This document shows positions 29,575 to 38,575 of a DNA stretch of 61,308 nt, piece by piece; the first letter of the stretch is position 1, and each line of letters begins with the position of its first letter. The stretch covers positions 1 through 61,308 of the forward strand of contig JAEOTR010000003.1 in NCBI GenBank assembly GCA_016839705.1. Reading direction: 5' to 3'. The DNA comes from Promethearchaeota archaeon. Its GTDB lineage: Archaea; Asgardarchaeota; Lokiarchaeia; Sigyniarchaeales; SOKP01. Below the pieces are notes generated by a model. That model was not told the DNA's origin. It worked only from the letters and a program-made list of their open reading frames with translations, and did no database searches. The translations under genes and the position numbers were made by a program.

Positions 29575-30765
29575 TCAACAATCTTTTAGGGGTGTCATAA
29601 AACCTCCCATCGTTCTTTTAGTCAATGGGTTCATTTTATTACATTCTATAGTTGCAACTTTTTTGCCAGTGATAAATTTTCCCATCTTTTTGCACTCTAC
29701 TTCAATCATGTTATGGATTGTAGGATTCACATCTTCAAATAAATGAAATTTTATTAAGGGTTCAGGTTTTTCAACGATGTCCCATACACCAACTATATGT
29801 CCATTTAGTAAAATAGTAGTTGTCGCATTACCAGATCGGTCGAAAATATACTCATAATTAGCATAATTGACGTATCGTTCCCGATTCTTATAGCCCATTA
29901 TATATGGATCGAGTCCAGGGAGTATGTTAACGGTAGGTTGCGAGTTTAACTCAATATCCTCAATAGCTTTTCTTTCAGACTTAAATAAAAGATATTCATA
30001 TTCTAAGTCACCAAGTTTAACGGTTTCTAATGTATCCGCGAATTGTTTCAGCGAAGCTCGAACTTTTCCTTTTGTTATTCCCAGCCACCAGACAATATCA
30101 GTCTCAGTAACGGGGCCATAATTCCTAATATATTTATTTATTAGCTTCGCTGTTGCTTGTGATTCATCATATGCATCAAGTTTGATATCTGGAAAATATT
30201 GTGCGAATGGAGCATAAAATAACCGTCTATCCTTCCAACTACTTATAGGTTTACCCCTAATTATAAACATTTCATCACACATTACAGAAATAACCGCATT
30301 TAAATCTTTTTCAGATTTTATTAAAGTCTTTAATTCGCTGGTTGATTTTTCCTTTTTGGTTAAAAGATTGATGATTTTATTCACTAACTTATCATATTGT
30401 TCTCTTGATATATCTCTTATTTCAAGATACATATTATCTCGCTTTACAGTTTGGTCCTTTATAACGGTGTGTACTAGTGGTATCATCTCTTTTGTAATAA
30501 TAAAAAGAGTCTTTCGCATCCCTCGAATTCGACCTAATCTCTTTTTTTTGTATAATTCATTGTCTAGATCTTCCTTATGAAAATCTTTCATACGAGTAAA
30601 AAGAGATAAATATGGCTCGAGGGTACCAGTTGCATGCAAGCCACATATGTCATCAACAATTTGAAGAATATCATTTATTTTATTTTGTTGCTTTAAGTGA
30701 TGTTTCTCGAGTAGATAGGAATTAACTTGATCAATTTCAAAATTAAACATGATACTAAAAATCAA
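29575..30765 (-). CDS. AlkZ/YcaQ-like (HTH_42) winged-helix DNA glycosylase
   Basis: GLHAT..PYLSLFTR, MRKTLF, YIRNYGPVT..D..WWLG, LPGLDPYIMGY..R, GHIVGVW. Confidence 0.75.
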   Translation of the reverse strand: MIFSIMFNFEIDQVNSYLLEKHHLKQQNKINDILQIVDDICGLHATGTLEPYLSLFTRMKDFHKEDLDNELYKKKRLGRIRGMRKTLFIITKEMIPLVHTVIKDQTVKRDNMYLEIRDISREQYDKLVNKIINLLTKKEKSTSELKTLIKSEKDLNAVISVMCDEMFIIRGKPISSWKDRRLFYAPFAQYFPDIKLDAYDESQATAKLINKYIRNYGPVTETDIVWWLGITKGKVRASLKQFADTLETVKLGDLEYEYLLFKSERKAIEDIELNSQPTVNILPGLDPYIMGYKNRERYVNYANYEYIFDRSGNATTTILLNGHIVGVWDIVEKPEPLIKFHLFEDVNPTIHNMIEVECKKMGKFITGKKVATIECNKMNPLTKRTMGGFMTPLKDC

Positions 30766-31325: not shown

Positions 31326-31679
31326 ATGGTTGATAAAAAAGTTCTTGAGAAAAAATTAGCAGAGTTAATGGACATAGTTCCTGAATGTGAAGGTTTGATA
31401 GCTGCTGACTCAAATGGGAAGGTTATCATTGGCCAGACTATTACAGATATGGATCATGGTAAGATCGCAAAAGCTTGTGTTGCCATTGTCAAGGATTCAA
31501 ACACACTTGGTAAAGATACGGGCAAAGGTGGGTTAAAAACAACCACAATTGAATTGGAGAATGGATTTGCTGTTTTGGTTGGTTCCGATAAGAGTACTTT
31601 AATAGCTTTAGCTGGGTCGGATGGAAGAAGTTCTCTTGCGTTATTAAAAAGAAACTTAATGTCAATATCAAACTTATAA
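31326..31679 (+). CDS. Roadblock/LAMTOR2 (MglB-like) protein
   Basis: EGLIAADSNGKVI...TTIELENGFAVLV...LIALA...LALL roadblock pattern; AAGGA SD. Confidence 0.8.
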   Translation: MVDKKVLEKKLAELMDIVPECEGLIAADSNGKVIIGQTITDMDHGKIAKACVAIVKDSNTLGKDTGKGGLKTTTIELENGFAVLVGSDKSTLIALAGSDGRSSLALLKRNLMSISNL

Positions 31680-31726: not shown

Positions 31727-34700
31727 TTACTTTTTTGGTTTTTTCTTTTTTTGTTTTTCAGCTAAGCCTCTTTCTTCTAACAATGAATCTAAATCAGTTG
31801 TCTTTTTCGGTTTATCTTCTTTCTGCTCGATCTTTTTCTTAGGAATCTTTTTCTCTGGAGTTGGTTTTTTTAAGTCGGATACCATTATGTATTTTCCTTT
31901 TCTTGGTCTTCTTAACGGCACTTCTACAGGTTCTTCAATTCTTTTCCTCACTTTGCGAGCGTAAATTATTGCGAGAGCCCAAACAATAATGAAAATTGCA
32001 ATCATTAAAAACATGAACATCTCAATAAAGAAATCTAATATTGGAGGATCAAAAACACTGAAAGAAGATTCTTCGGAAAAAGTGAAATTTTCACCGGTAA
32101 TAACATTTTGGGCGGTTATTGTAAAATTTATTCGAAGGTGGCTGACTTCAGTCATAAAAATTTCAATCTCTATATCTGATTTATCACCAGAGGAGAGCCA
32201 ATTTAATTCAACGTAATTTACTTCGACAATTGAATACTCTAAATTATTCTCAATGTCTACAGTAATATCAAAAAGTCTTACGTTAGAGTCTCCAATATTG
32301 CTTAAACTATAAGTTATTGTTGTTAATCTATTTCTATATATAAATACATCATTCTGGCTAACTGAAATTGAAATGTCGGTGTCCTCATGAATAGTATTTA
32401 TAGAGAAATTCTCTGAAACACCGTTTATGATATCCCCCGCCCAAGATAATTTTAATAGTAAATCCCCTTCAAAATCGATAATCAAAGTGTCTATGATAAA
32501 CTTAACATAGCCATTAACATCAGTCACACCTGTGGCAATTTCAACCCATGAACTTGAGTCAAAGTACTCACAAGTGACGTTCTTATTTGACAATGCCTCT
32601 CCAAATTCAGTAGTTAACCTTGAACTAAAATTAATCGATTGACCTTTGATTGGGATGGTTGGATCAATCGTCATGTTTGTAAATTTGCTATTAAGCTTTA
32701 TGGAAAATTCATCACTGAATTGCTTATAACTGCTGACATAATTTTTATCAATGATATTTACTAAAAATGATGATTTATTTGGAAAGTACAAACATTCGTC
32801 TCTCTCAAATTCATATAGAATAATTCCACTTGTTATTTCTTCTGCAATTGTTAAACCAAGAATATTACCATCATAATTATCACTTGTCTTATTACTCAGA
32901 AGTGAGAATCTAGGACTTTTATAGACTCCCACAACAACGTCTTCGATATATAGAGTAATTATTGTTTTTGCCCCTCCTAATCTGATAGGTGCATTTACAC
33001 CAAGCCACGTTTTTGAAACAATATCTAAATTTGGTATTGTGAGATTTACATCAAATTCATGACTGTCATCTGGATGTCCAGAGAAATTTAATGTGACCGT
33101 GTTTGAAATATTTTCAGCGATTATCCAATCTTCATTAATATATGAAACTAATTGTGTATCTATTTTTACATCAAGAGGAAGAAAAGGATGGGTATTGTGA
33201 ATTGTTGTTTTAAAGTTAACAATTTCGTTTGGATTTAATATATCTTCGCTTTGTAGAAATGATTCTAATAAAAGAGATAGATCTTGTCCACCCAAATTAT
33301 AAGAGAATTCTTGTGTTAGATCGGAATTATTTATCGCATAAAAATTTGGAATAGGAATGCCTGTGGTATCATTAATTGAGGCAATTAATATGGTATAATT
33401 CCGAAAGACTTTATTATTTAATTTCCCAATAAGAGCATTCGTCCCTAGGTCTGAATAATAAGTTAAATTATATAACTCAAGATCATATAAATCGATATAA
33501 AGAGTGATTTTTTTGCATCCTAAGGCTGAACCGTTTAACCAAAAGAATCCTAATTCATATTCTCCAAAAGTAGTAACTGTAGCGCTTAATTCTAACAATA
33601 TAGCGTTATTGAAATCGTAAGATAATAGTGAACCATCAATAGAACCAGTTGAATTCACCAATTCTGCTCCAGGATATCTTGTACCATTTGGAAAAAAAAG
33701 CGTAGCATTCGCATCACCACTTATTGGGGCATTTAAATTTTGATCTTGTATGTCGAGACTAACTGAAATGTTATCTCCATACATGAAACCATTTGTTTCT
33801 GATAGAATTCCTTTATAATTAATATAACTATGCATTTGATGAATGAAATTATAACTAGTTAAATTGAGTGAGAAGGTACCATCAAGGGTAGTATATGTTT
33901 CATTAATTACTAATTTTAACTTATTATGCTGATCTGTTACAACAGATTCCTCTTCTAATAACCAGAGAAACTCTTCACTATTTGGTTTCGTGAGATTATG
34001 AGCATTCATATAATTCGGATAAACAAACCAGAATTCCTTGAAATCCCAATTATTAAATTTCGAGCTGGATTTATCAAAATCATACTCTAGAACCCACTCA
34101 GGATTTTCATTATAGGTTGCATTATATAAAGCTGTCGCACCCTCAATCCAATAAGCCACTATAGAATATGTAACATTGAATTTAAAACCCTCAATCACAC
34201 TTTTATTCCATTCTAAGTAGACTTCAAATTCATCAGTAGGAGTATCTTCAACGGGTGTGGTAAAATAATTATTCCATCGTCCCAATCCCCAAGTTAAATA
34301 AGAACTTTCATTATATGGAGATGAACTAATTTCTAAATTTTCTATCGTCATATCGTTAATTTTCAGGGTATTACTCCCTTCATATACAAAATCAGAGGGC
34401 ATATATCCTCTAGTGACATTCAACCTAAAAGGGCTGGCATCGAGTTGACTTGATGGATATGGTTCATTAGTAGTTTCTATTTGCTTTGTCGCTAATGACC
34501 AACTAAGTCCATCATTATTAGTAGTTATCAATTGGTGTTCAGTTATCCCATCAGCTGTAAAATCAGTATAGGGTAATGATACTAGACTATATACTTCATC
34601 GGAATTATTTGACTTTATCACAATAAAATAATTTGAAAGGTTCAAATTTTGAGTATTAGCTGTATTAAACTCAAAATAGGAGGTATTGTCTTTGGTATAA

Positions 34701-35848
34701 CTTGTGAATAAATTTGAATCAATCATCTCATTATAGTCTGGGTTTAATTGTGTACCTCGTAAATTCGCTTCAGTCCTAACTATGGTATCATCTGCTCGAT
34801 ACAGTGTGATATTGAGTTCTGTAGTTGCTGCTTTCGTCAAATCTAAGGTTCTTATCCAAGCATAAAATCCATTTACAGTAGTTTTTTCTCCCTTTAAATC
34901 GAATTCCAGAGCAACATAATCGTTATCTGTTATAGGTAAATCAAATGCATATGTTGATGATAATTCTAAATTATAGAAATGACCATCGAAAGGTGTGGTA
35001 TCTTTTCTCTCAAAAATGAATTGGAGATAACAAACATCAAATGTATCAATATAATTCAAGTTTTCATTTATAAATTTCCTTTGAATCTCCTGAATACCTA
35101 TACTACTACTAATAGGAATTGGATTTGTCAAGTTTACCCATGCTGGTTGTGAATCATCCCATATTCTTACTGTCAAATTTGCATCCTCATCAAGCTCAAA
35201 AAGTAAGGAGAGAATTAGAGCTAATATTTTCGTTCTATTAAATTCGACATTACCGTTGATTACCAATGGATTAGTATACACCTCATCAGTATAATTTGCT
35301 TTCACCGTAAAATTTAGTTTGCCATTATCTGCTCTTAACCATAGATTAGTTGAATTTGAGCTATCAACTAAGTCATTAAAAACACCGTCTATAGGCGATG
35401 TACTACTGGGGTCATAAGTATAGTTTGAATAAGGTTGATTTTCGTTAAAGTCAAAGGAAATGAAATCAGCAGCATCTAGACCACTATCATCTTCAAGGAT
35501 ATAATCTGTAGTAAAATTACTTTGAAACGTAAAATTGAAATCACCATAAGTGAGAAACATATCGTCTGAGGGAATAGAGGGAATTTCAAAAAACTCTTCA
35601 TTATCATTTAAATTACTAGATTCATTATTTACATAAATTCTAACATCCTGCTCATCCCCATTACCAACAATATAATCATCTAAATCAAGATTAGAGGTAT
35701 TTGGAAAATCTTCTAGATCTTTAATTTCATTACTATTTTCTCTTATCAAATTAGGATAGAATAAGAATTGTATATTAGATAATAAAATAAATGAAGTAAA
35801 AATTACGACAACTGCTATTCTTTTAATCTCTTTTTTTTGTCGAATCAA
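31727..35848 (-). CDS. Large cell-surface glycoprotein with C-terminal TM and Lys-rich cytoplasmic tail
   Basis: N-terminal hydrophobic segment, acidic beta-rich ectodomain with many NxS/T sequons, TM MFLMIAIFIIVWALAIIYA, basic tail. Confidence 0.75.
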   Translation of the reverse strand: MIRQKKEIKRIAVVVIFTSFILLSNIQFLFYPNLIRENSNEIKDLEDFPNTSNLDLDDYIVGNGDEQDVRIYVNNESSNLNDNEEFFEIPSIPSDDMFLTYGDFNFTFQSNFTTDYILEDDSGLDAADFISFDFNENQPYSNYTYDPSSTSPIDGVFNDLVDSSNSTNLWLRADNGKLNFTVKANYTDEVYTNPLVINGNVEFNRTKILALILSLLFELDEDANLTVRIWDDSQPAWVNLTNPIPISSSIGIQEIQRKFINENLNYIDTFDVCYLQFIFERKDTTPFDGHFYNLELSSTYAFDLPITDNDYVALEFDLKGEKTTVNGFYAWIRTLDLTKAATTELNITLYRADDTIVRTEANLRGTQLNPDYNEMIDSNLFTSYTKDNTSYFEFNTANTQNLNLSNYFIVIKSNNSDEVYSLVSLPYTDFTADGITEHQLITTNNDGLSWSLATKQIETTNEPYPSSQLDASPFRLNVTRGYMPSDFVYEGSNTLKINDMTIENLEISSSPYNESSYLTWGLGRWNNYFTTPVEDTPTDEFEVYLEWNKSVIEGFKFNVTYSIVAYWIEGATALYNATYNENPEWVLEYDFDKSSSKFNNWDFKEFWFVYPNYMNAHNLTKPNSEEFLWLLEEESVVTDQHNKLKLVINETYTTLDGTFSLNLTSYNFIHQMHSYINYKGILSETNGFMYGDNISVSLDIQDQNLNAPISGDANATLFFPNGTRYPGAELVNSTGSIDGSLLSYDFNNAILLELSATVTTFGEYELGFFWLNGSALGCKKITLYIDLYDLELYNLTYYSDLGTNALIGKLNNKVFRNYTILIASINDTTGIPIPNFYAINNSDLTQEFSYNLGGQDLSLLLESFLQSEDILNPNEIVNFKTTIHNTHPFLPLDVKIDTQLVSYINEDWIIAENISNTVTLNFSGHPDDSHEFDVNLTIPNLDIVSKTWLGVNAPIRLGGAKTIITLYIEDVVVGVYKSPRFSLLSNKTSDNYDGNILGLTIAEEITSGIILYEFERDECLYFPNKSSFLVNIIDKNYVSSYKQFSDEFSIKLNSKFTNMTIDPTIPIKGQSINFSSRLTTEFGEALSNKNVTCEYFDSSSWVEIATGVTDVNGYVKFIIDTLIIDFEGDLLLKLSWAGDIINGVSENFSINTIHEDTDISISVSQNDVFIYRNRLTTITYSLSNIGDSNVRLFDITVDIENNLEYSIVEVNYVELNWLSSGDKSDIEIEIFMTEVSHLRINFTITAQNVITGENFTFSEESSFSVFDPPILDFFIEMFMFLMIAIFIIVWALAIIYARKVRKRIEEPVEVPLRRPRKGKYIMVSDLKKPTPEKKIPKKKIEQKEDKPKKTTDLDSLLEERGLAEKQKKKKPKK

Positions 35849-37393: not shown

Positions 37394-38575
37394 GTGCCAG
37401 AGATAAAAATTGAGGATACAGTAATTTTACTTGATACTTCACGATCAATGCTCAGAAAAGATTTTAAGCCAAGTCGATTAGCTGTAGGACTCCACACTGT
37501 GAAAAACTTCATCCAATCCAAATTATCCATCGACTTGAAAGATAGAATTTCAATAATTTCCTTTGGGGATACCACACATAAATTAATTAATTTTGCATTT
37601 GAGGAAGAAAAATTATTAAATTCTCTAAAAAAGATTCAAATTTCTGGTAGGGGTATATTGCATGAAGGTATTGCTTTTGCCTTACAAATTCTTGTTGAAG
37701 AAATGCGTAAAATTGGGGGAAAAGTCCCTAGAATTTTCATAATAACAGATAACAAATTAGTTTTTGATAAAGATCGTTTAGATAAAATGGTAAACATTGC
37801 AAAGGGGTTGGGTGTTTATATCGATGTTTGTCAGTTAGGAGGAATTCAAGGATACGAGGAAGATAAATTGAAAAGAATTACCCAATTAACAAGAGGAAAA
37901 TTTGGATTTTACAATAATACTAAAGAAATTATTAATGCCGGGAAGGTATTTGCGTCAAAAAAAGAAATACGAGAAACGACTGATTATTTTTCACCAGAAA
38001 AAAAAGTAGATATTGCCCCCTTAGTAAGTGAAATTGCTTTACCATTAAGACGCCCACATGTATTAGAAATGAAGTTAATGATGAGCGGAAAGGGTAAGGG
38101 AGAAGAAAAGTGTAATATTTGTCATTCTGTTAAGTCCCCAATAACGAGCTCTGATTTCTATTCCGAGGGTAGATATTGCCCCTCATGCGATAGAGCCATG
38201 CACTTATCATGCGCTGCAATGTGGGCAAAAAAAACAGAATATAAAGAAAATGTATTTCGTTGTCCATTTTGCTTTTTTTTATTGGAATTACCAAGAGCCG
38301 CCCTTAAATTCGCTCAGGATAGGGATGGAGAAACTTCAGAGATAAAGATAATTGAAGAAGATGAAGGAAAAGAAGCAAAGATGATACAAATCTCACAAGA
38401 AAGCGTCAGTCAAATTGATGCCTCATGCTCATATTGCCATAGTATTTTTTTAGGAGATTATAAAGTTTACCAATGCAATAAGTGTGGCTCATATTATCAT
38501 AAACCTTGTTTAGGCAAAATGATTAATGAAATTAGCGCATGCAGAAATTGTGGTGCTAAAATCATATCTAATTAA
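37394..38575 (+). CDS. VWA domain + two RING/C1-like zinc fingers (TFIIH p44/Ssl1-like architecture)
   Basis: LLDTSRSMLRKDFKPSRL (DxSxS MIDAS); CNIC..CPSC..H..C..CPFC and CSYC..CNKC..H..C..CRNC. Confidence 0.75.
   Translation: MPEIKIEDTVILLDTSRSMLRKDFKPSRLAVGLHTVKNFIQSKLSIDLKDRISIISFGDTTHKLINFAFEEEKLLNSLKKIQISGRGILHEGIAFALQILVEEMRKIGGKVPRIFIITDNKLVFDKDRLDKMVNIAKGLGVYIDVCQLGGIQGYEEDKLKRITQLTRGKFGFYNNTKEIINAGKVFASKKEIRETTDYFSPEKKVDIAPLVSEIALPLRRPHVLEMKLMMSGKGKGEEKCNICHSVKSPITSSDFYSEGRYCPSCDRAMHLSCAAMWAKKTEYKENVFRCPFCFFLLELPRAALKFAQDRDGETSEIKIIEEDEGKEAKMIQISQESVSQIDASCSYCHSIFLGDYKVYQCNKCGSYYHKPCLGKMINEISACRNCGAKIISN

Follow-up and report, generated by a model that had tools for sequence, protein, structure and literature searches.

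Among the genes on positions 1 to 61,308 of contig JAEOTR010000003.1, from the genome of a Promethearchaeota archaeon (assembly GCA_016839705.1; this whole stretch of 61,308 nucleotides is hereafter called the window), is one at 37394-38575 (+ strand) that encodes a protein of 393 residues in which a von Willebrand factor A (vWA) domain is followed by two RING-type zinc fingers. We propose, at what we judge to be about an even chance of being right, that the gene encodes a RING-type ubiquitin-ligase-like adaptor or E3 of the archaeal ubiquitin-like protein (Ubl) system that is specific to one lineage, the class Lokiarchaeia. The observed domain make-up, zinc-ligand patterns, conservation and fold resemblance of the protein, together with the Ubl, E1, E2 and JAB genes present in the same genome, point to such a role. 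On this proposal the vWA domain, whose metal site is largely intact, would dock a substrate or partner protein; finger 1, the more canonical RING with an Ile/Trp/Pro surface, would recruit an E2 loaded with the ubiquitin-like protein of the archaeon, giving the protein its putative ligase activity; and finger 2, presumably a duplicated RING module, would bind a second E2 or stabilise the assembly. Asgard archaea possess a eukaryote-like ubiquitin cascade whose substrate-selecting E3s are largely unknown, and we regard this protein as a concrete E3 candidate because it occurs in every sampled genome of its own family and because both of its RINGs are under strong constraint. The gene and the parts of its product, all on the + strand of the window, are as follows.

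37394..38575, +: whole gene; an open reading frame (ORF) with 55-76% identical orthologues in 80 public Asgard contigs and an AlphaFold2 (AF2) model
37394..37963, +: vWA domain, residues about 1-190
37433..37447, +: DxSxS motif of the metal-ion-dependent adhesion site (MIDAS) type, D14-T-S16-R-S18, from the orthologue alignment
38015..38056, +: linker motif APLVSEIALPLRRP, residues 208-221, between the vWA domain and finger 1; identity 0.83 over 75 full-length orthologues
38111..38272, +: finger 1, residues 240-293, a predicted C4HC3 cross-brace RING variant with I242, W277, R289 and P291
38426..38551, +: finger 2, residues 345-386, predicted C4HC3 cross-brace RING type

The gene begins with GTG, which we take to be the right start because the orthologues begin M-P-x-x-K-I-E-D-T at the same position, and the product runs from the vWA domain through a linker to finger 1 and through a second linker to finger 2. 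Pfam VWA_2 matches residues 9-120 at 58.4 bits against a cut-off of 27, so that a model of the vWA superfamily is passed, and Pfam VWA matches residues 8-167 at 35.3 bits. Mean pairwise identity among the 75 full-length orthologues is 0.83 in finger 1, 0.76 in finger 2, 0.64 in the vWA domain and 0.44-0.49 in the linkers; by this measure the fingers are under the strongest constraint. In the linker motif, A215 occurs in 77 of 81 orthologue rows as well as in 25 of 25 paralogue rows, and residues 211-220 have a mean predicted local distance difference test score (pLDDT) of 80. The AF2 model from which this value comes, built with 62 diverse family members as input, has a mean pLDDT of 81.2 and a predicted TM-score (pTM) of 0.70 for the 393-residue protein; a run with 13 close orthologues reached a pLDDT of 39.3 and was unusable.

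Both fingers are predicted to bind zinc in the binuclear, eight-ligand manner of cross-brace domains, with a ligand pattern that lies far beyond chance. The ligands of finger 1 are C240-x2-C243-x18-C262-x2-C265-x4-H270-x2-C273-x16-C290-x2-C293 and those of finger 2 are C345-x2-C348-x12-C361-x2-C364-x4-H369-x2-C372-x10-C383-x2-C386. All 16 are invariant in 13 orthologues. Across 62 family members, some of them distant paralogues, the eight of finger 1 and also W277 do not vary, and the C4HC3 pattern is kept throughout 102 distinct sequences of finger 1 and 84 of finger 2. The two fingers are related to one another by hhalign (probability 85%, E 5.9e-6), with all ligands in register. In RING E3s the E2-contact face is formed by Ile, Trp and Pro at positions C1+2, C6+4 and C7+1. 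Across the 102 distinct finger-1 sequences these positions hold Ile in 101, Trp in 101 and Pro in 99, and since the three residues are kept there and not in finger 2 we take finger 1 to be the likelier E2 site.

Profiles of the fingers were compared with solved chains. The finger-2 profile (29 sequences) matches the RING-H2 of Arkadia at E 2.8e-6 (30.3 bits), RNF165 at 3.6e-5, RNF24 at 1.2e-4 and RNF4 at 4.9e-4, with RCHY1, synoviolin and RNF126 lower down; the finger-1 profile (31 sequences) yields weak matches, mostly to C4HC3 RING variants (NSE1, FANCL, EL5, SLX1, listerin, Doa10, HRD1). No chain of p44, a subunit of TFIIH, is found among the 51 finger-1 matches or among the best 60 of the 173 for finger 2. 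The Pfam RING models score the 393-residue protein below threshold: zf-RING_2 at 18.8 bits (cut-off 27.3), Prok-RING_1 (PF14446), to which both fingers of family members give such sub-threshold matches, at 18.5 (29.1) and zf-RING-like at 9.5 (26.6). Finger 2 of the paralogue encoded elsewhere in the genome passes zf-RING-like, at 27.7 bits. In distant relatives that combine a vWA domain, a RING and a zinc ribbon, the Prok-RING_1 score rises to as much as 28.2 bits, and one distant vWA match (P0266, 361 residues) reaches 30.3; none of the family members scanned attains 29.1. The protein thus resembles RING E3s such as Arkadia (RNF111), RNF165, RNF4, NSE1, FANCL, SLX1, listerin and Doa10 in its eight cross-brace ligands and in the finger-2 profile match, but differs from them in fingers that stay below the Pfam cut-offs, in lacking Arg or Lys at C8+1 and in carrying tandem RINGs behind a vWA domain. 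A vWA- or copine-type docking domain and a RING share one chain in the plant RGLG1/2 and WAV3 family, which has a single RING and a copine-type vWA.

The source genome, which is 93% complete, holds three E2 matches and three Ubl matches over cut-off, and it has one cluster of such genes:

own contig 87, L098:7333-11678: ubiquitin-type cluster encoding a Ubl (118 residues), a ThiF-type E1 (411), an E2 (175), a JAB protease (280) and a membrane protein (401)

The E2 of the cluster keeps the HPN motif and the Cys. The C-terminal tail of its multi-pass membrane protein is RING-like, with the pattern C-x2-C...C-x2-C...H...C-x2-C, and hhalign gives this tail a weak alignment to finger 2, at a probability of 69%. 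In one genome from another family of the class (G297; L102:1082-3262), a family member lies directly downstream, on the same strand, of a gene for a ThiF-type E1-like protein of 271 residues. An initial annotation of the window, made from the sequence without database searches, had placed the gene at the same coordinates, with a vWA domain starting LLDTSRSMLRKDFKPSRL (residues 12-29 of the protein) and two zinc fingers behind it, and all of this is borne out by the ORF, by Pfam VWA_2 and VWA and by the 16 conserved ligands. Its proposal of a candidate E3 ligase likewise stands, because the fingers are RING-like (the Arkadia match of finger 2, the Ile/Trp/Pro of finger 1) and because genes for E1, E2 and Ubl are present in the genome. 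In the spacing that it gave for the last finger, the final x9 is correct, but the x9 before YQC is 10 and the x3 before HKPC is 4. The further idea that this finger is like the last finger of p44 is not supported, as there is no match to C1_4 (PF07975) among the 16 Pfam families found at E up to 10 for the 393-residue protein, and the p44 RING scores -6.0 bits against the family profile.

A word-indexed protein search returns 404 matches at E up to 0.001 among 2975 candidates, and the 120 listed of these 404 are 68-100% identical to the query; an exhaustive search of representatives gives 249 at E up to 0.001, 98 at 1e-10 and 41 at 1e-30. Full-length relatives extend down to about 27-45% identity, and remoter forms have a zinc ribbon in place of finger 2. 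Among 10 representatives that were looked up, five are named, as Promethearchaeota, Lokiarchaeia or Helarchaeota. Species-representative genomes contain 96 stretches with a gene for a relative; the best 80 of them, at 55-76% identity, are the basis of the neighbourhood counts below. The range of the family was determined on 301 genomes of the phylum with the whole protein at E up to 1e-20: it is present in all 68 genomes of the family to which the window belongs, in all 7 of the order's second family and in 1 of 1 and 0 of 1 of two further families of the class, and at that threshold in 0 of the 224 genomes elsewhere in the phylum. A finger-1 profile recovers the same range and, in the 224 other genomes, five further matches that are weak (E 9e-7 to 9e-4). 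As judged from this sample, the vWA-RING-RING family is confined to one archaeal class, the Lokiarchaeia. A spread across the whole phylum, suggested by the names given by submitters (Thor-, Odin-, Hod- and Hermodarchaeota, 68-77% identical), is contradicted by the genome sample. A 64%-identical orthologue lies on a contig titled Nanopelagicaceae bacterium (DATKTW010000029.1); given the range of the gene, this contig is probably of Asgard origin and was mis-binned or mislabelled. In one genome of the source organism's genus the orthologue is split into two pieces about 5.7 kb apart (G177:C1:171094-171810 and 177469-177774), each with a TGA inside, and this gene may have been interrupted by an insertion. 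Of the 77 genomes with a match, the majority encode two members of the family; in the source genome the second copy, on contig 56, has 401 residues, 31% identity and the same architecture. Literature searches on Asgard with Ssl1, on vWA plus RING and on von Willebrand plus ubiquitin turned up no description of the family, as judged from titles and abstracts.

The vWA domain calls for closer comparison with eukaryotic subunits that contain such a domain, above all TFIIH p44 (GTF2H2; Ssl1 in yeast) and the proteasomal Rpn10 (PSMD4). D14, S16 and S18 are kept in 77 of 81 orthologue rows, the remaining four being gaps in truncated ORFs, and D119 in 81 of 81; G87, in 77 of 81 rows, stands where ordinary vWAs have the Thr of G-x-T, according to our own reading of the alignment. 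Four of the five residues of a complete MIDAS (DxSxS...T...D) are therefore present (D14, S16, S18, D119), the Thr position being Gly87, and metal binding by the domain is possible, to go by these residues. In a single-sequence search of solved chains the best match is S. pombe Rpn10 (2x5n; E 4.3e-7, 32.4 bits, residues 6-153), with p44 far behind (E 0.024, 16.7 bits), while a profile of 13 orthologues puts p44 and Rpn10 level at the top (each E 3.2e-8, 36.1 bits) and bacterial Bat-type vWAs lower (23.7 and 17.2 bits). Aligned to human p44, the family profile covers the vWA domain only, including the N-terminal DxSRSM...D-x-KP-x-RL. Foldseek with the AF2 model returns p44/Ssl1 chains at all of ranks 1-21 (E 2.2e-16 to 6.9e-12). 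Most of these alignments span about 390-420 columns at a root-mean-square deviation (rmsd) of about 23 A, which indicates the same order of domains as in p44 but a different arrangement. Against structure entries of the vWA alone the TM-scores are 0.87 for p44 (rmsd 2.0 A), 0.85 for Ssl1, 0.82 for Rpn10 and 0.74 for BatB. The predicted vWA fold is thus closest to p44/Ssl1 and then to Rpn10, with a lead over bacterial vWAs of only 1-4 Z units along a smooth gradient. In a protein language model, in which cluster similarity is by the tool's own rules only a lead, the family's own clusters are followed by eukaryotic p44 (0.91, with 153 of 256 features shared; 0.90; 0.87) and Tfb4 (0.81). Among giant-virus proteins whose fold matches that of the vWA, one is called a RING zinc-finger protein and another an E2 enzyme, by name only; we count this in favour of an E3-type role.

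These resemblances lose much of their specificity when ordinary prokaryotic vWAs are scored alongside. By phmmer such vWAs match the protein at 54-55 bits (up to 54.9), against 32.4 for Rpn10 and 16.7 for p44. A control profile built from 23 of them and run for ranking against solved chains scores Rpn10 at 81.6 and p44 at 49.9 bits, against 36.1 for the vWA-RING family profile, so that ordinary prokaryotic vWAs are closer to Rpn10 and p44 than the family is. Only the ranking sets the family apart, its profile placing p44 and Rpn10 first, whereas the ordinary-vWA profile puts Bat proteins and collagen first and p44 far down. Pfam Ssl1 (PF04056) matches the protein at 27.9 bits against a cut-off of 27, over model positions 2-107 of 193 and well below VWA_2; the paralogue scores 40.5-41.8 bits on this model, and ordinary prokaryotic vWAs pass it too (P0271 at 37.1 bits, P0255 at 52.6). 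The consensus of ordinary prokaryotic vWAs also contains D-x-S-x-S-M...D-Y-x-P-x-R, and the DxSxxM...D(F/L)xPxRL string that the initial annotation had read as a signature of p44 and Rpn10 must for this reason be rejected as a mark of either. Of the kinship with p44 and Rpn10 that it had suggested, a resemblance of the vWA domains survives (the profile match at E 3.2e-8, the language-model similarity of 0.91), but a specific relation to p44 does not, the Ssl1 match being of half length and prokaryotic vWAs scoring higher. It had named a grouping of the vWA with generic prokaryotic vWAs, together with fingers that are not RING-like, as the outcome that would tell against it; the bit scores do favour ordinary prokaryotic vWAs (54.9 against 16.7 for p44), yet the fingers are RING-like. 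Among the prokaryotic domains found in this analysis, this vWA has the predicted fold that most resembles the p44/Rpn10 type. It may serve as a useful outgroup for the origin of the eukaryotic p44 and Rpn10 subunits, though the present evidence does not make it an ancestor.

In the window the gene lies between genes for an M20 peptidase and a methionyl-tRNA synthetase (MetRS) on the same strand. This pair flanks it on the same strand in 64 of the 80 loci (each of the two in 74), and seven neighbouring genes are collinear across the family, in 44 to 74 of 80 loci. An operon with the M20 peptidase and MetRS was considered and rejected: the whole seven-gene block is collinear and does not persist in the order's other family, so that shared ancestry is enough to account for the synteny. 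In two genomes of one genus from that other family (L100:6563-12185 and L101:827-4654), which lack the M20/MetRS synteny, a gene for a Ras-family GTPase of about 200 residues comes after the orthologue and, further downstream, one for a protein of 520-530 residues with a Gtr1/RagA-like N-terminus. The paralogue in the source genome also has a GTPase at its side:

own contig 56, L002:1007-2212 (-) and L002:2408-3616 (+): 401-residue paralogue and 402-residue GTPase, head to head

The GTPase beside the paralogue, of about 400 residues, is Gtr1/RagA- and Arf-like (Pfam 73.5 and 72.1 bits). In 21 paralogue-type loci, which were hand-picked and are not independent, the two genes are adjacent and divergent in 16 (three of these 16 are from the other family of the order), and the GTPase is present in 17. 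The conserved pairing of paralogue and Rag/Arf-like GTPase hints at a link between RINGs and small GTPases that predates eukaryotes.

Several observations weigh against a RING-type E3. The gene stands outside the Ubl-E1-E2-JAB cluster, which has a RING-like-tailed membrane protein of its own. Finger 2 lacks the Trp and the Pro, having Tyr or Phe at C1+2 in 78 of 84 distinct sequences, Met at C6+4 in 70 and Arg at C7+1 in 78. Position C8+1, where many RING E3s have the Arg or Lys known as the linchpin, has neither residue in either finger (F, Y or L in finger 1; Gly in 82 of 84 finger-2 sequences). The matches of finger 1 to solved chains are non-significant (NSE1 at E 0.0024, FANCL at 0.011), those of finger 2 are interleaved with the PHD finger of KMT2D (2.2e-5) and the C1 domain of PKC theta (7.8e-5), and no RING, PHD or C1 model of Pfam reaches its cut-off for the 393-residue protein. 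The structure searches, moreover, were filled by vWA matches and so barely probed the fold of the fingers, and a search of the Atlas with the finger half alone gave no usable match. Some of these points would also fit fingers that are PHD- or C1-type readers of a peptide, lipid or nucleic-acid ligand and not E2-binding RINGs. The C-x2-C-x4-H-x2-C spacing is that of PHD fingers, the KMT2D and PKC theta domains come near the top for finger 2, and Pfam C1_1 (E 4.8e-5) and PHD (5.7e-4) outscore the RING models, but neither of the two attains its own cut-off. The top solved match of finger 2 and most of its matches at E below 1e-3 are RING E3s, those of finger 1 are mostly RING variants, and RINGs typically show an H-x2-C-x3-W signature together with Ile and Pro; we therefore consider such readers quite unlikely. 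An adaptor in small-GTPase signalling would use the fingers differently again, as protein-protein modules of a scaffold, non-catalytic or E3-coupled, that works with Rag/Gtr- and Ras-like GTPases. The divergent pairs in 16 of the 21 chosen loci and the Ras-like and Gtr1/RagA-like neighbours in the two genomes of the order's other family speak for such a scaffold, but the 21 loci are a non-independent choice, and in its own family the gene sits between the M20 peptidase and MetRS and not beside a GTPase. Small GTPases are very numerous in Asgard genomes, so that some adjacency is to be expected. A scaffold of this kind is in our view unlikely; should the GTPase pathway be the substrate, it would overlap with the RING-type E3 that we prefer.

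The remaining alternatives start from the vWA domain. Were the protein a scaffold like p44, the vWA would bind and regulate an XPD-type helicase and the fingers would clasp another vWA protein, perhaps the paralogue, in the way that p44 locks onto p34, making up a module like the TFIIH core. The protein and p44 are alike in size (393 against 395 residues), in having two zinc modules behind the vWA domain, in N-terminal motifs that align and in the missing MIDAS Thr (again by our own reading of the alignment); the top Foldseek ranks, the nearest named language-model clusters and the profile match all fall on p44; an XPD-type helicase is encoded in the genome (DEAD_2, 106 bits), and two family members per genome are the rule. 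The p44 layout is vWA, eZnF and RING, the last of C4C4 type, as given by Greber 2019 (PMC6422496). The protein differs, however, in having two C4HC3 RINGs instead of an eZnF and a C4C4 finger of the C1_4 type, in the lack of an N-terminal extension and in a match to Ssl1 that is half length and at the cut-off, and the control profile of ordinary prokaryotic vWAs scores p44 higher than the family profile does. At genome level, counterparts of the p44 partners p34 and p52 stay below cut-off, with Tfb4 at best 15.3 bits (cut-off 27; on the paralogue) and no Tfb2 match at E up to 0.1, as does C1_4 (at best 19.8 bits, elsewhere in the genome; cut-off 28.9); nothing vWA-like is evident beside the XPD-like gene, as judged by ORF sizes only. 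The family, finally, is restricted to one class, with 0 of 224 sampled genomes in other families of the phylum. The protein thus fails the tests for a p44 in its last finger, in the lack of a full-length and specific Ssl1 match, in the p34 and p52 content of the genome and in a range that does not extend beyond one class; it is not shown to be a p44 ancestor, and we hold a p44-like function to be improbable. An Rpn10-like receptor or adaptor, whose vWA would dock on the proteasome or a Cdc48-type unfoldase and deliver clients, agrees with a cytosolic vWA that lacks the MIDAS Thr, as in Rpn10 and p44, and with 2x5n as the best single-sequence match. Rpn10, however, does not have the two RING-type fingers that occupy the C-terminal half here, ordinary prokaryotic vWAs match it far better (81.6 against 36.1 bits), Pfam at E up to 10 lists no ubiquitin-interacting motif (UIM) family, though a scan of this kind can miss such short motifs, and no proteasome genes are seen in the neighbourhood of the gene; this function strikes us as very unlikely. 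Just as doubtful is a broader idea, that the two paralogues form an interlocked heterodimer in the style of p44/p34 and share descent with the eukaryotic p44, p34 and Rpn10 vWAs. If it were true, the Lokiarchaeia would preserve a pre-eukaryotic scaffold of vWA and zinc fingers that was later taken up both into TFIIH, alongside XPD, and into the proteasome lid.

Other genes of the window deserve brief mention. The segment 40729-42003 (-) encodes a protein of 424 residues for which Pfam gives nothing at E up to 1 and which lies beside MetRS in 70 of the 80 loci, at 58-86% identity. At 31727-35848 (-) is a gene for an Asn/Ser-rich protein of 1373 residues with one hydrophobic stretch at the N-terminal end and another at the C-terminal end, the latter followed by a Lys-rich tail; it matches no Pfam model at E up to 1e-5, is found in 66 of the 80 related loci at 26-75% identity and, from these features, looks like a surface protein. 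Upstream of it are genes for a Roadblock/LC7 protein of 117 residues (31326-31679, +) and for an AlkZ-like DNA glycosylase of 396 residues (29575-30765, -).

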